Under the pieces are notes generated by a model that ran no database searches, was not told the origin of the DNA, and worked only from the letters and a program-made list of their open reading frames with translations. Both the position numbers and the translations under genes were made by a program. A stretch of 64,000 bases of DNA from NCBI GenBank assembly GCA_964489445.1, contig CAZAYU010000004.1, positions 189-64,188 of the forward strand. Direction: 5' to 3'. Within the stretch, counting starts at the first letter, position 1. Each line of letters opens with the position of its first letter. Of the stretch, positions 1,725 through 7,878 are shown one piece after another. The stretch comes from an uncultured Planctomycetia bacterium. GTDB taxonomy: Bacteria; Omnitrophota; Gorgyraeia; Duberdicusellales; 4484-171.

Positions 1725-2999
1725 TTATCCTTTAGGAAAAACTATGGTAAGCGTATCTTGGTTAAGAATAGTTTTAGCTTTTTTTGTATTAGCGTCAGCG
1801 GGCAAAGGAATAATATTGGAATAAAATTCATGGCTTTCTGTTGTATACAAATAGTTTTTGCTGCTTTCTTCTTTACTTACAGAGCGCACAGCGGAGATTA
1901 TAACCATTTCCTCTTTAATCTCAATGTTTACAGTATCCTTATCCAAATTGCTAATATCAACTTCTAAAACATATTCAGTGTCCTTATCCTGAATACCTAA
2001 GGCAGAATTATAAAAAGATTCCGAATCATTAGATTCCGTGTAACTTTCATGATCATAGTTAAAAATATTTTGGAAAAATTGATTTATTTCTTTTTCAGCT
2101 CTTTCTGCCTCAGCAGTTGAACCAGAATTATTTTCTTTAGACAATAAAGCTAAATGTGAATTATTCAAAGACTGAGAAGAGCTTTGCTTACTATTTATAT
2201 TTGATTCCTGATTTAAATAATTATCTAAACTTTCTCTTATATTCTCTACCGGAATCGCAAAGCCAATGCTTTGTGAATCTTGAACCACAGCAACATTAAT
2301 ACCGATAAGCTCACCATCAAGATTAAAAAGTGCTCCACCGCTATTGCCAGGATTAATGGGAGCATCGGTTTGAATAAGCTCCTTGCAAATAACATTACTT
2401 CCCGGAAGATATAGCTCTCTTTGTTTACCGCTGACTACTCCTACTGTAACTGAATTTTCTAACCCCAACGGATTTCCAATAGCAATTGCTGTTTCCCCAA
2501 TCATAATGTCTTGGGGCTTACCCAATTTAATTTCTTGAAGCGGATGAGGAGGGCTAATCTTAATAATCGCTAAATCCTGCTTTAAGTCTTCATAAACTAC
2601 CTCACCCTCGACAGAAACTCCATTACTTAAGATTACAAACACATCGCTGGCCATGTTTACAACATGGGCATTAGTAATAATGATTCCCCGGCTTTCTAAA
2701 ATTACTCCGGAGCCTACGCTTTTTAGCTTTAAAGCGTGTAAATAGCTATACCCACCAAAAAACTGCTCAAACAATAAATCAAACTCATCGCCATATCCTC
2801 CCCAATAGGGATTTTCCTGCAAAAGCACAATATGTTCGGTACTAATATTTACAACTGTCTCTGCGTTTTCCCGAACTACTTCGACAACCGGAGTCTGGCG
2901 CTGGCTCGCAAAAACATTAGAAATAAAACACGAACATCCAATTATAAACAGAAATAAAATAATAGAAATTCGACTAGGGTGTTTGATATTTAGCAGCAT
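1725..2999 (-). CDS. HtrA/DegP-like trypsin-fold serine protease fused to a C-terminal Hsp20/alpha-crystallin domain. The start is moved to the internal Met at 2999.
   Basis: N-terminal TM/signal (ISIILFLFIIGCSCF). Catalytic triad motifs TNAHVV, DLAIIKI and GNSGGALF. A Ser/Asn/Gln-rich linker follows. The C-terminal ~95 aa (YVLEVDISNLDKDTVNIEIKEEMVIISAVR...ESHEFYSNIIPLPADANTKKAKTILNQDTLTIVFPK) match the small-HSP alpha-crystallin pattern. The track ORF's first 23 codons overlap tRNA-Pro, so the start was placed at the Met at 2999. Confidence 0.75.
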   Translation of the reverse strand: MLLNIKHPSRISIILFLFIIGCSCFISNVFASQRQTPVVEVVRENAETVVNISTEHIVLLQENPYWGGYGDEFDLLFEQFFGGYSYLHALKLKSVGSGVILESRGIIITNAHVVNMASDVFVILSNGVSVEGEVVYEDLKQDLAIIKISPPHPLQEIKLGKPQDIMIGETAIAIGNPLGLENSVTVGVVSGKQRELYLPGSNVICKELIQTDAPINPGNSGGALFNLDGELIGINVAVVQDSQSIGFAIPVENIRESLDNYLNQESNINSKQSSSQSLNNSHLALLSKENNSGSTAEAERAEKEINQFFQNIFNYDHESYTESNDSESFYNSALGIQDKDTEYVLEVDISNLDKDTVNIEIKEEMVIISAVRSVSKEESSKNYLYTTESHEFYSNIIPLPADANTKKAKTILNQDTLTIVFPKG

Positions 3000-3009
3000 A
3001 TTTATAAAA

Positions 3010-3084
3010 TCGGGAAGGGCGGACTCGAACCGCCGACCTCTTCGTCCCGAACGAAGCGCGCTAGCCAAGCTGCGCTACTCCCCG
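3010..3084 (-). tRNA. tRNA-Pro (anticodon CGG)
   Basis: Hand-folded 75-nt cloverleaf on the minus strand. Acceptor CGGGGAG/CTTCCCG with C1-G72 (typical of bacterial tRNA-Pro). D-stem GCGC. Anticodon loop TTCGGGA gives anticodon CGG with G37. T-arm GGCGG-TTCGAGT-CCGCC. CCA is not encoded. Confidence 0.8.
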
Positions 3085-3136
3085 ATTAGATACAAGTTAC
3101 AAGGATAAAGGTAAAAGTAAAAAATAAAACCGCGCA

Positions 3137-4507: not shown

Positions 4508-5765
4508 TGTTAACTATTTTCCTTATTTTTTCCTCAATCCCTTCATCGATATCACCCACGCAAGAAATACACATATTAGAAAATTTAAATATCGACTGCG
4601 CTATTTTTTTTAAATGTTGGGCATTGATAAGTTTAATCTTTTTCTTTATATCACTTAATAAATCTATCCTTCCTAAATTAATATAGCTTTGTGCGGCATA
4701 GAACATTCTTCCCCCCGGACGCTCCAAGCCCATAGTAACCTGACCCAAAAAATAATCTTTAGCTCGGGAAAGCTCTTTGTTCGAGACTTCTTTTTCTTTT
4801 ATTCTAGACAACTCATCCATTATCGTACGCAAGGCTATCAGTATTTTTCCTTTATCCAGCCCCACATGAATTACAAACGCTCCGCTGTCTTTATACTTTC
4901 GTAGCTCTGTAGAAACATCATAGCATAATGATTTTTTTTCTCTTAAGCTTTCAAACAACCGGCTACTCATGTTAGCACCTAAAATAATATTTATTAATTG
5001 AGCAGCTGTCTTATCTTTGCTTAGATAAGAAATACTTCTAAACCCAACACAAAGATGAGATTGATGAAGACTTTTTTTCTCGCATTTTATCTGTATTCCT
5101 TTTAACTCTACAGGTGCAACTGTTCTAAGCTTTACTCTGTTATTATTCGGAACAGTTTTTAATTTTAAAAAATCGCTAACTTCTTTTTTGCACGCTGCTC
5201 CGCTAAACGCAATCACTGTGTTAGAAGGAATATAGTATTTATTCTTAAAACTATTTAAATCATTTCTATTTATTTTATTTACAGTCGAATTATACCCGAT
5301 AATTTCTTCACCTAAAGGATGATTTTCCCAAAGCAACCTGTCTAAAAGCATAATAGCTCGAGGTGCCGGAAGATCATTATACATTTTTATTTCTTCTAAA
5401 ATTACCGTTCGTTCTTTGTTTATATCCGCAGTCTTTAAAAGCGGATTATACACCATATCTAAAAGAATATCTAATGTATACCTTAAATTTTTACTTAAAA
5501 AATTAGCATAATAAGCGGTTATCTCCTGAGAAGTAAACGCATTTAAATCTCCTCCCCGGCCTTCAACCTCCCGTTTTATCTGACGATGTGAATATTTTTT
5601 ACTACCCTTAAACAACATATGTTCTAAGAAATGGGCAATTCCCTTTACCGGCTTCTTTTCAAACCTAGACCCGATTCGCAAAAACACCCCCAAAGAAGCG
5701 CTTTCCATCCCTTGAAAAGGAGAAAAAATAAATGTTACTTTGTTTATAGTGTTTATTTCGTACAT
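4497..5765 (-). CDS. M16-family zinc peptidase (pitrilysin-like)
   Basis: Inverted zinc motif HFLEHMLFKGS near the N-terminus. 422 aa with two M16 halves. RBS GAGGTGG upstream. Confidence 0.8.
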   Translation of the reverse strand: MYEINTINKVTFIFSPFQGMESASLGVFLRIGSRFEKKPVKGIAHFLEHMLFKGSKKYSHRQIKREVEGRGGDLNAFTSQEITAYYANFLSKNLRYTLDILLDMVYNPLLKTADINKERTVILEEIKMYNDLPAPRAIMLLDRLLWENHPLGEEIIGYNSTVNKINRNDLNSFKNKYYIPSNTVIAFSGAACKKEVSDFLKLKTVPNNNRVKLRTVAPVELKGIQIKCEKKSLHQSHLCVGFRSISYLSKDKTAAQLINIILGANMSSRLFESLREKKSLCYDVSTELRKYKDSGAFVIHVGLDKGKILIALRTIMDELSRIKEKEVSNKELSRAKDYFLGQVTMGLERPGGRMFYAAQSYINLGRIDLLSDIKKKIKLINAQHLKKIAQSIFKFSNMCISCVGDIDEGIEEKIRKIVNNGY

Positions 5766-5868
5766 AACTGTCCACCTCTAAAGGTTAAAGGATAAAGGAT
5801 AAAGGATAAACAAAGATCATAGTTATTAGCTGATAGCTCGTAAATGATAGTAGATGATTACTTTTCTT

Positions 5869-6654
5869 TTATGCGCCACGTAAATATTTAACGTGGTTCT
5901 TCAACTTATTTAAAAAATCCTTTTGCTTGTAATTTTCGTCAATAAACTTTACGATTTCACTTCCGACAATCGCTCCATCACTAAACTTACTTATTTTAAT
6001 TACTTGCTCTCGGCTATGAATCCCAAACCCCACACATACCGGCAAAGTAGTCATTTTTTTAATATTATTTAGATGCTGTCTTACAGACACCAAATCCAAA
6101 TCATTAGCGCCAGTAATTCCGGTAACTGAAATATAGTAGATAAACCCTTTAGAATATTTAGCAATCTTATTTGCACGCTCAGAAGAAGTTACTGGAGTAA
6201 TAAAAAAAATTGTATCCATATTGTACTTGCCAGCCTCTTCTAAATAAATTTTGCCCTCTTCTACAGGCAAATCAACTATAGTAATTGCTGAAAAACCGAT
6301 TGTCTTCATTTTTTGAAAAAACTTATTTATTCCGTATTTATAAATCGGGTTATAGTAAGACATGATAACTACCGGTATTTTTATCAATTTTTTAATTTTA
6401 TCAAAGCTTTTAAAAAAAATGTCTTGGTTTACTCCTTTTTTAAGTGCTATAGAAGTTGCTCTTTGAATGATCGGGCCGTCAGCTAACGGATCGGAAAATG
6501 GTATTCCTATCTCAATAATATCCACCCCTGCTTCCTGAAGGGCTAAAAATATTTTACAGCTTAAATCAACATTAGGAAATCCAAACGGAATATAGGCAAT
6601 AAACGCCTTATTATTTTCTTTTGCCAGCTGTTTAAATTTATCTTTTAATCTCAT
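5869..6654 (-). CDS. trpA: Tryptophan synthase alpha chain
   Basis: TIM-barrel TrpA signature (IEIGIPFSDPLADGP, GFGI), directly downstream of trpB. Confidence 0.9.
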   Translation of the reverse strand: MRLKDKFKQLAKENNKAFIAYIPFGFPNVDLSCKIFLALQEAGVDIIEIGIPFSDPLADGPIIQRATSIALKKGVNQDIFFKSFDKIKKLIKIPVVIMSYYNPIYKYGINKFFQKMKTIGFSAITIVDLPVEEGKIYLEEAGKYNMDTIFFITPVTSSERANKIAKYSKGFIYYISVTGITGANDLDLVSVRQHLNNIKKMTTLPVCVGFGIHSREQVIKISKFSDGAIVGSEIVKFIDENYKQKDFLNKLKNHVKYLRGA

Positions 6655-6693
6655 GCTGTTGGATATTAATTAAAAATTACAAACTGTAACCTG

Positions 6694-7878
6694 TTATGTT
6701 TTATTTTTTCTTTTATAGCCTCTGACAATATCTAAATCTTTATCCCCTCTTCCGGAAAGACAAACTAACACTGTCGCTTTTGGTTTTTCTTTTGCTATTT
6801 TCTTTAAATAATAAATAGCATGTGATGACTCAAGCGCAGGAATTATTCCTTCTGTTTGAGAAAGCAAATTGAATCCTTCTATTGCCTGATCATCGCCCAC
6901 TGTAACATAAGATGCTCTTTTGGTAGTTTTATAAAAAGAATGCTCTGGGCCTACACCAGGATAGTCTAATCCCGGAGCTACAGAATGAGCACTGCTAATT
7001 TGGCCAAATTTATCTTGTAGGACATAGGAGCAAGACCCTTGAAACACTCCCGGCTGGCCCTTAGTCAGTGAAGCAGAATGAGAACTGTTTAAACCTAACC
7101 CGGCAGCTTCAACGCCGATAAATTTTACTGACTTATCGTTGAAGAAAGGATGAAACAAACCGATTGCATTACTTCCCCCGCCCACACAAGCCAATAGATA
7201 GTCGGGCAGCTTGCCTTCCTTCTTGATTATCTGGGCCCTTGACTCTTTGCCGATTACTATCTGAAAATCTCTGACAATCATCGGATACGGATGCGGTCCG
7301 ACCACTGACCCTAATAAATAATAAGTATCTCGGACATTAGTAACCCAGTCCCGAAAAGCTTCATTGCAAGCATCTTTTAGTGTTTGCGATCCACTTTCCA
7401 CCGGTATCACCCGTGCACCAAGCACCTTCATCCGAAATACATTCATACTTTGCCGTTTAATATCTTCCTTACCCATATAGATATCACACTGAAATCCCAT
7501 AAGCCTGGTTACTGTAGCTACTGCCACCCCATGTTGACCGGCTCCGGTTTCCGCAATGACTCGTTTTTTTCCCATAAATTTAGCCAAAAGAACTTGCCCT
7601 AACGCATTATTAATCTTATGTGCTCCGGTATGAAGCAAGTCTTCCCTTTTTAAGTAAATGTTTATTCCCAATAACTTGCTTAAATTACCCGCTGAATAAA
7701 GAATAGTCGGCCTACCAGCATATTCTTTGAGCAATCTTTTAAATTCATCATTAAATTTCCGACTATTTATTTCTTTTTTGTATGCTCTCTCTAATTGCTC
7801 TAAGCAAGCAGAAATAGTCTCAGGAATGTATCTTCCGCCAAAATTACTAAAATATCCTTGTTTATTAGGTACTTTCAT
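6694..7878 (-). CDS. trpB: Tryptophan synthase beta chain
   Basis: PLP-lysine motif HTGAHKINN and GGGSNAIG in a 394-aa product. Confidence 0.95.

Follow-up and report, generated by a model that had tools for sequence, protein, structure and literature searches.

An HtrA-type serine protease of Omnitrophota carrying a small heat-shock protein module in the position of its PDZ domains

What becomes of an HtrA protease when its PDZ domains are gone and an unrelated domain stands where they should be? The question is raised by a gene on the minus strand of a 64,000-nucleotide (nt) stretch of contig CAZAYU010000004.1, from an uncultured bacterium of the Omnitrophota (this whole stretch is referred to here as the window). 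In the bacterial envelope, in chloroplasts, and in mitochondria, HtrA proteases are the central enzymes of ATP-independent quality control; the PDZ domains of the studied members bind substrates and activators and take part in cage assembly, and DegP, DegQ, and DegS recognize C-termini through them. The original prediction, made from the letters of the sequence, was that this gene encodes an S1C protease core behind a signal or transmembrane anchor, followed by a Ser/Asn/Gln-rich linker and an alpha-crystallin domain like that of a small heat-shock protein (sHSP), and that no such fusion was known to have been characterized. We find that the fusion is real and conserved across the Omnitrophota. 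Its features, all on the minus strand, are as follows.

1725-2999, minus strand: complete gene for the protease-sHSP fusion, 424 codons plus a TAA stop (1725-1727)
2907-2999, minus strand: Sec-type signal peptide, residues 1-31 (heuristic analysis: n-region with K6 and R10, hydrophobic core, predicted cleavage between VFA and SQ)
2205-2906, minus strand: S1C (HtrA/Do-type) chymotrypsin-fold protease domain, residues 32-265 (Trypsin_2, TIGR02037)
2664-2666, minus strand: catalytic H112, in the motif TNAHVV
2574-2576, minus strand: catalytic D142, in the motif DLAIIKI
2340-2342, minus strand: catalytic S220, in the motif GNSGGALF
2004-2204, minus strand: disordered Ser/Asn/Glu-rich linker, residues 266-332 (AlphaFold2 confidence and composition)
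2061-2120, minus strand: amphipathic helix within the linker, residues 294-313, modeled with low to medium confidence
1728-2003, minus strand: alpha-crystallin (HSP20) domain, residues 333-424 (Pfam HSP20, AlphaFold2, Foldseek)

By its peptidase unit, the encoded protein is assigned to the S1C (HtrA-type) peptidases. Pfam Trypsin_2 covers residues 96 to 234 with 110 bits, and the NCBIfam model TIGR02037 (degP_htrA_DO) aligns with 218 bits over profile positions 3 to 231 of 434, that is, over the protease half only; the score lies below the 416-bit cutoff because the PDZ half of the model is left unmatched, and the window protein reaches none of the whole-protein NCBIfam cutoffs. In an alignment of 93 family sequences, the catalytic His and Ser are invariant and the Asp is present in 91. 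The best solved relatives are the protease domain of Thermotoga HtrA (1L1J; E = 2e-42) and Synechocystis HhoA (5T63; E = 1e-41), and AlphaFold2 models most of the domain with a predicted local distance difference test (pLDDT) score above 90, against a mean of 77 for the full-length model. The predicted core behind an N-terminal anchor was therefore sound, the anchor being a cleavable signal peptide. Within this domain, the region of the LA loop (residues 58 to 91; nt about 2727 to 2828) is poorly modeled, with pLDDT below 50, yet it contains an aromatic motif under strong conservation, NPxWGxYGxEFDxxFxQFF. D74 of this motif is invariant, and conservation reaches at least 90% at P64, W66, G67, Y69, G70, and F77/F80; the same motif is found in paralogues that consist of the bare protease.

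At the C-terminus, Pfam HSP20 matches residues 336 to 423 with 33.0 bits (E = 6.8e-8; gathering cutoff, 20.8) and reaches 35.9 bits when the last 151 amino acids (aa) are searched alone, while no PDZ family model in Pfam matches the window protein even at E ≤ 10. The modest HSP20 score is explained by the divergence of this copy from the rest of its family: the C-terminal segments of 44 family members match HSP20 without exception (best E, 1.3e-18), none of the 44 matches PDZ at E ≤ 1, and a profile of these 44 regions matches solved sHSPs at E values from 2e-17 to 1e-14, among them chloroplast Hsp21 (2e-17), Xanthomonas HspA (5e-17), pea Hsp18.1, and wheat Hsp16.9. The predicted structure agrees. 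AlphaFold2 places a confident beta-sandwich at residues 333 to 423, with block mean pLDDT values of 88 to 97 in a model of the C-terminal region and 67 to 95 in the full-length model; when the C-terminal model was compared with the PDB by Foldseek, all 50 of the matches listed (ranked by E value) were alpha-crystallin domains. The models also retain the beta5-beta7 loop in this domain. An alpha-crystallin domain with no detectable PDZ domain, as originally proposed from motifs, is thus what Pfam, profile, and fold comparisons all return.

Between the two domains lies a stretch of 67 residues containing 15 Ser and 11 Asn, in keeping with the Ser/Asn-rich linker first described. Outside residues 294 to 313, 10-residue blocks of the linker have mean pLDDT values of 31 to 40; within that helix the block means are 54 to 56. 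Across the family, the linker measures 15 to 89 residues (median, 79), and the consensus between protease and alpha-crystallin domain reads WDPFxEMxRMRxxMDxMFxxxF. This Met-rich motif (W-D-P-F...M..M...M..MF) is found in 55 of 93 members, and in HMMER alignments, which end at the 'PK' of beta9, the consensus pairs with the N-terminal regions, likewise rich in Met, of Hsp21 and Xanthomonas HspA. The window protein itself stops one residue past that 'PK', with no C-terminal extension and no I-x-I; family-wide, a median of two residues follows the alpha-crystallin domain, and an I/V-x-I/V motif occurs in none of the 93. In most family members, then, the graft appears to comprise an sHSP N-terminal region together with the alpha-crystallin domain, minus the C-terminal extension used for oligomerization. 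The window copy departs from this pattern. In it and in its closest relative (P0002), the WDPF motif is replaced by a Ser/Asn-rich stretch and a residual amphipathic helix, and we interpret the helix at residues 294 to 313 as a degenerate remnant of the sHSP N-terminal region. At the conserved Arg position of the alpha-crystallin domain, the family has R in 54 members, K in 28, Q in 9, and N in 2, the Asn being that of the window protein and P0002. We therefore regard the window copy as a genuine but divergent and atypical member of the family.

A homologue search covering 5.8 billion proteins returned about 95 clusters of 354 to 449 aa, all combining Trypsin_2 with HSP20 and 42 to 71% identical to the window protein. 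Those whose source is named belong almost entirely to the Omnitrophota, including Ca. Makaraimicrobium. A protein identical to that of the window (P0001) occurs on 8 contigs, and the two of these loci that were displayed come from two different Joint Genome Institute (JGI) metagenome samples and have the same neighbors as in the window. The fusion family has diverged about as much as PolA has within this phylum; the PolA encoded in the window has named relatives at 51 to 63% identity, all from Omnitrophota/Omnitrophica metagenome-assembled genomes (MAGs) except for one partial sequence labeled Aenigmatarchaeota. Taken on these sequences, the fusion appears to be under selection. The claim of a covalent fusion of protease and alpha-crystallin domain thus holds, and its domain order is common to more than 90 clusters, from Omnitrophota MAGs where the source is named. 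The accompanying claim of novelty held in part. In a full-text literature search with incomplete journal coverage, neither an HtrA-sHSP fusion nor a periplasmic sHSP was found to be described, but the architecture is already present in databases through automatic annotation, several relatives being labeled by JGI as 'S1-C subfamily serine protease/HSP20 family molecular chaperone IbpA'. The architecture is uncharacterized rather than unseen.

The Omnitrophota also encode the protease without the graft. Three proteins of 257 to 263 aa (P0103, P0104, and P0111) consist of a signal peptide and a protease domain only and are 52 to 54% identical to the window protein in the best local BLASTP alignment, which spans 59 to 61% of the query; no split sHSP gene was found beside the bare paralogues in the two loci inspected (L081 and L082). 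One 301-aa relative (P0099; L082, 4001-4906) retains a remnant of the sHSP N-terminal region (KWNPMTKMQQIQKKL) and has no alpha-crystallin domain, which suggests secondary loss of that domain from a fusion; an upstream Cyclophil_like gene is common to P0099 and to one of the fusions (P0078). Other relatives are truncated or chimeric: P0088 ends within the N-terminal region, and P0126 has an unrelated N-terminus.

Where the fusion would act is indicated by its N-terminus. The signal peptide was called heuristically (a Kyte-Doolittle core above 1.8 and small residues at positions -3 and -1). A hydrophobic core above this threshold and a positively charged n-region are present in all 87 complete family N-termini, and 86 of them have an AXA-like site, a few residues ahead of the conserved mature N-terminus R-E/Q-T-P-V-V; in the window protein, cleavage is predicted after residue 31. 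No twin-arginine motif is present. A lipoprotein reading was considered and rejected: the window protein does contain a lipobox-like string, IIGC, yet such a string occurs in only 2 of the 87 relatives, against 86 with an AXA-like site, and this difference favors cleavage by signal peptidase I. The window protein is accordingly predicted to be exported and periplasmic. The pattern is uniform throughout the family and agrees with where HtrA proteases act, the heuristic analysis placing the protein outside the cytoplasm, as in the HtrA/Do family. By calculation, the precursor has a mass of 46.7 kDa and the mature protein 43.2 kDa, of which the alpha-crystallin domain accounts for 10.3 kDa and the linker for 7.6 kDa.

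The origin of the C-terminal module can be approached through its free relatives. An exhaustive profile search with the C-terminal region, run over 1.84 billion representatives, found 179 at E ≤ 1e-30, and most of the best 150 of these 179 are stand-alone proteins of about 200 aa rather than fusions. They fall largely into two types. Type A (65 representatives) has a cleavable signal peptide, a heptad-like helix (judged by eye; for example, LKAQIEALQKRVEELE), a WDPF N-terminal region, and an alpha-crystallin domain with no C-terminal extension. Type B (73 representatives; for example, P0168, P0195, and P0202) has a membrane anchor at the N-terminus, positive charges clustered after it, and a tail of 14 to 17 residues ending in I/V-x-I/V. 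In the one type B context examined, the sHSP gene (L095/L096, 4001-4660) overlaps the start of a gene for a ClpB-like AAA+ protein (4657-6807); type B proteins are probably sHSPs that are anchored in the membrane, face the cytoplasm, and are coupled to a disaggregase. In P0152 (360 aa) and P0157 (371 aa), a hydrophobic segment at the N-terminus precedes two tandem units of N-terminal region plus alpha-crystallin domain; these two proteins are apparently duplicated sHSPs that are exported or anchored in the membrane.

The alpha-crystallin domains of the fusions are on average 46% identical to those of type A, 41% to those of type B, and 49% to one another, and for 89 of 92 fusions the nearest non-fusion neighbor is a type A protein. 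We relied on these statistics because so short a domain does not give a reliable tree; a neighbor-joining tree of about 240 alpha-crystallin domains gave no single clean fusion clade and did not resolve a single origin. Of 20 stand-alone proteins looked up, three had a named source, all Omnitrophota: two of type A (P0128, MGE0268587.1; P0136, MFP4473226.1) and one signal-peptide form with a tail. On this evidence, the fused module descends from an sHSP clade in which export and the absence of a tail were established beforehand, and the position taken by the protease in the fusions is that of the heptad helix in the free type A proteins. Type A proteins are themselves predicted to be periplasmic sHSPs forming a large Omnitrophota clade (within P0124-P0265). 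Their genes were examined at five independent loci.

L089, 6001-6603: type A sHSP
L092, 5001-5612: type A sHSP
L093, 3156-3773: type A sHSP
L090, 5001-5618: type A sHSP
L091, 279-917: type A sHSP

At three of the five, the sHSP gene follows genes for an OmpR-type regulator, a HAMP-HisKA kinase, and a REC-only protein; downstream of the sHSP lies PTS_EIIA_2 in two loci and signal peptidase I in one (L093, directly). In E. coli, Cpx and Bae control degP and spy, and the two-component context of the type A genes resembles, by analogy, envelope-stress control of the Cpx kind. At L090, the type A gene comes after two ordinary HSP20 genes and a MerR regulator. At L091, it lies 40 nt upstream of, and on the same strand as, a gene for an HtrA with one PDZ domain (957-2030; Trypsin_2 plus PDZ_2), which is 38% identical to the window protease; we view this pair as a split-gene counterpart of the fusion. 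Three loci from Thermoanaerobaculia/Acidobacteriota MAGs show another arrangement, in the order clpB, sHSP, HtrA.

L007, 777-1253 and 1304-2734: Acidobacteriota cluster, HtrA of 476 aa with PDZ
L009, 4628-5116: Acidobacteriota cluster, HtrA open reading frame (ORF) running off the end of the locus
L010, 5322-5852 and 6013-7290: Acidobacteriota cluster, HtrA of 425 aa with PDZ

In these clusters the sHSP lacks a signal peptide and retains an I-K-I tail, and the arrangement looks like a compact heat-shock cluster spanning both compartments.

The best explanation of these observations, and one toward which we lean with modest confidence, is that the fusion is an ATP-independent periplasmic hold-then-degrade protease in which most of an sHSP has replaced the PDZ domains. 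The HtrA trimer is the basic unit of the family, with higher oligomers forming on activation; in canonical sHSPs, the N-terminal region is a main client-binding element, and the C-terminal I/V-x-I/V docks in the beta4/beta8 groove of a neighbor and builds oligomers. The protease domain of the fusion would trimerize like those of other HtrAs and so supply an oligomeric scaffold in place of the lost I-x-I tail. Three tethered sHSP modules could then bind exposed hydrophobic segments of unfolding envelope proteins, using the vacant beta4/beta8 groove together with the Met-rich helix of the N-terminal region. The alpha-crystallin domains might dimerize via the beta5-beta7 loop, either linking trimers into larger assemblies or recruiting free exported sHSPs that are loaded with clients. 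Captured clients would pass along the flexible linker of roughly 70 residues to the adjacent active site and be degraded there; degradation rather than refolding is proposed since no ATP-dependent partner that could release clients from an sHSP is present in the periplasm. Capture by hydrophobic surface would, on this model, do the job of C-terminus recognition by PDZ domains. Both the holdase activity and the hand-off of substrate are inferred.

Several observations weigh against this model. A subclade of fusions of 354 to 394 aa (e.g., P0069-P0093) has no sHSP N-terminal region at all, and the absence of WDPF and the Asn at the conserved Arg position mean that holdase function may be weakened in the window copy. 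The surroundings of the fusion gene vary, and no partner genes lend the model support: conserved operon partners were not found, and the neighbors differ among the window and three orthologue contexts (L083/L084, L085, and L086). Adjacency of an sHSP gene and an HtrA gene was seen at a single Omnitrophota locus, L091. The Acidobacteriota clusters involve a cytoplasmic form of sHSP, which indicates co-regulation only and not physical coupling.

The main rival to hold-then-degrade is that the alpha-crystallin domain is purely a module for assembly or regulation, building hexamers or cages or gating the active site, while the protease domain recognizes the substrates. We consider this unlikely on balance but deserving of serious weight. 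Contacts between PDZ1 and PDZ2 do this structural work in DegP and DegQ, and the conservation pattern fits: the alpha-crystallin domain is constantly conserved, the N-terminal region is absent in the short subclade and degenerate in the window protein, and the loop retained between beta5 and beta7 is the dimerization element of non-metazoan sHSPs. The bare 257-263-aa paralogues, moreover, imply that the protease evidently works without any C-terminal domain. A pure assembly module, however, would have no need of the well-conserved Met-rich WDPF region that 55 of the 93 members keep under evident selection, and this N-terminal region is shared by the closest relatives of the module, which are free, exported sHSPs.

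It is improbable, in our judgment, that the fusion is instead a precursor, a device for co-export or stoichiometry whose HtrA domain cuts the linker after export and frees a periplasmic sHSP and a bare protease. HtrA proteases do autocleave, the linker is long, low in complexity, and predicted to be disordered, and both products are separately encoded in the phylum, as bare proteases and as exported sHSPs. In the linker, however, whose sequence and length both vary, no conserved cleavage motif can be seen, and a released module would have neither an I-x-I tail nor the coiled-coil helix of the free exported sHSPs and thus no evident route to oligomerization.

That the gene is an artefact, with neighboring HtrA and sHSP genes joined through a frameshift, through chimeric assembly, or in a decaying pseudogene, can be set aside as very improbable. 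Truncated and chimeric relatives do exist (P0088, P0099, and P0126), but ORF analysis finds the frame uninterrupted over 1725-2999 on the minus strand, and the identical copies on 8 contigs, the more than 90 clusters with the same architecture, and the near-invariant triad exclude a frameshift or assembly join in the linker, a fault that the original prediction had named as a possible source of error. Almost no credence is due to the last alternative, a highly divergent PDZ domain scoring as HSP20 by chance, for which nothing speaks beyond the expectation that HtrA proteins end in PDZ, and which is refuted by the PDZ searches, the 44 HSP20 matches, the sHSP profile at E = 2e-17, and the Foldseek result. 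A divergent PDZ domain was the other possible fault named in the original prediction, and neither of the two was borne out.

A wider reading can be offered, although we do so tentatively, as a possibility to which we would not commit ourselves: that the Omnitrophota have relocated the sHSP system to the periplasm and possess there an ATP-free triage network, made up of exported sHSPs under Cpx-like control and of the fusion protease, and that these would be the first periplasmic sHSPs described. Free exported sHSPs, induced by the two-component system, would capture unfolding envelope proteins; the alpha-crystallin domain of the fusion would form heterodimers with client-loaded sHSPs, or capture clients itself, and those that could not be refolded would be degraded. 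The alpha-crystallin domain would then replace PDZ both as substrate sensor and as cage-building element.

The current models of HtrA activation and cage assembly that we are aware of all rest on PDZ domains. A phylum-wide exchange of PDZ for an sHSP module is therefore a natural experiment on what the C-terminal domain of an HtrA must do, and asks whether capture by hydrophobic surface can stand in for recognition of a C-terminus. For the sHSP field, the fusion would, if the model is true, provide a covalent link between holdase and protease and, together with the stand-alone relatives, evidence of sHSPs outside the cytoplasm; it thereby addresses the standing question of the fate of sHSP-bound clients where no Hsp70 or ClpB can release them. 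Fusion and exported stand-alone sHSPs together point to an extracytoplasmic sHSP system that has not been described. The exchange of domains is clean and ancient, extends across the phylum, and lends itself to testing; the function assigned to it is entirely inferred. Because the protein is small, soluble, and easy to express, these hypotheses are directly testable, and a self-contained hold-and-degrade module could possibly be useful as a tool.

The gene itself has an unusual upstream neighbor.

3009-3085, minus strand: tRNA-Pro(CGG) gene (ARAGORN), directly upstream of the fusion gene and outside the protein

Only 9 nt separate this tRNA gene from the ATG at 2999. A longer ORF from a TTG at 3068 was rejected, its first 23 codons being a read-through of the tRNA gene; ATG 2999 is taken as the start because the longer ORF runs across that gene, and the start first assigned is thereby confirmed. 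No recognizable Shine-Dalgarno sequence lies between the tRNA gene and the start codon, and the protease may be co-transcribed with tRNA-Pro or translated without a canonical ribosome-binding site. A scan for promoters and terminators gave no signal above shuffled expectation, and tblastn found no second copy of the protease or of the alpha-crystallin domain in the window. The window is a housekeeping region of an Omnitrophota chromosome, with trp genes and genes for PolA, Rho, Dxs, and ribosomal protein S1. Its gene-strand bias is complete over the 64 kb (positions 1 to 64000): each of the 45 ORFs that reach 200 aa or more is on the minus strand. GC skew stays below zero throughout, ranging from -0.09 to -0.36 in 2-kb bins.

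Compared with the HtrA/Do proteases (DegP, DegQ, DegS, Thermotoga HtrA, and HhoA), the window protein shares the signal peptide, the S1C domain with its His-Asp-Ser triad, a conserved N-terminal helix and FxQFF segment, and, presumably, a role in ATP-independent quality control of envelope proteins. It differs in having no PDZ domain, the sHSP module filling that position; to our knowledge, all HtrA relatives that have been studied carry PDZ domains. Plants have a PDZ-less HtrA homologue, Deg5. The PDZ-less Omnitrophota proteins P0103, P0104, and P0111 likewise have the S1C domain without PDZ, and the same N-terminal motifs, but unlike the fusion they end directly after the protease domain.

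With the canonical sHSPs (HspA, Hsp16.9, Hsp21, and IbpA/B), the fusion has in common a beta-sandwich with the motifs GxF-x-R-x-x-x-LP and G-x-L-x-I-x-x-PK (beta9), the beta5-beta7 loop, and, in most family members, a Met-rich amphipathic N-terminal region that aligns with that of Hsp21. In contrast to them, its module is the C-terminal third of a 47-kDa protease and not a free subunit of 12 to 43 kDa; the fusion is exported, to judge by its signal peptide, whereas they are cytoplasmic; the oligomer-building I/V-x-I/V extension is found in 0 of 93 fusions; and the compartment in which it is predicted to reside has no ATP-dependent Hsp70 or ClpB partner. Closest to the fusion are the type A sHSPs, which share with it the phylum, the signal peptide, the WDPF N-terminal region, and the absence of an extension, and which differ in carrying a short heptad-repeat helix before the module and in often being encoded behind a two-component system.

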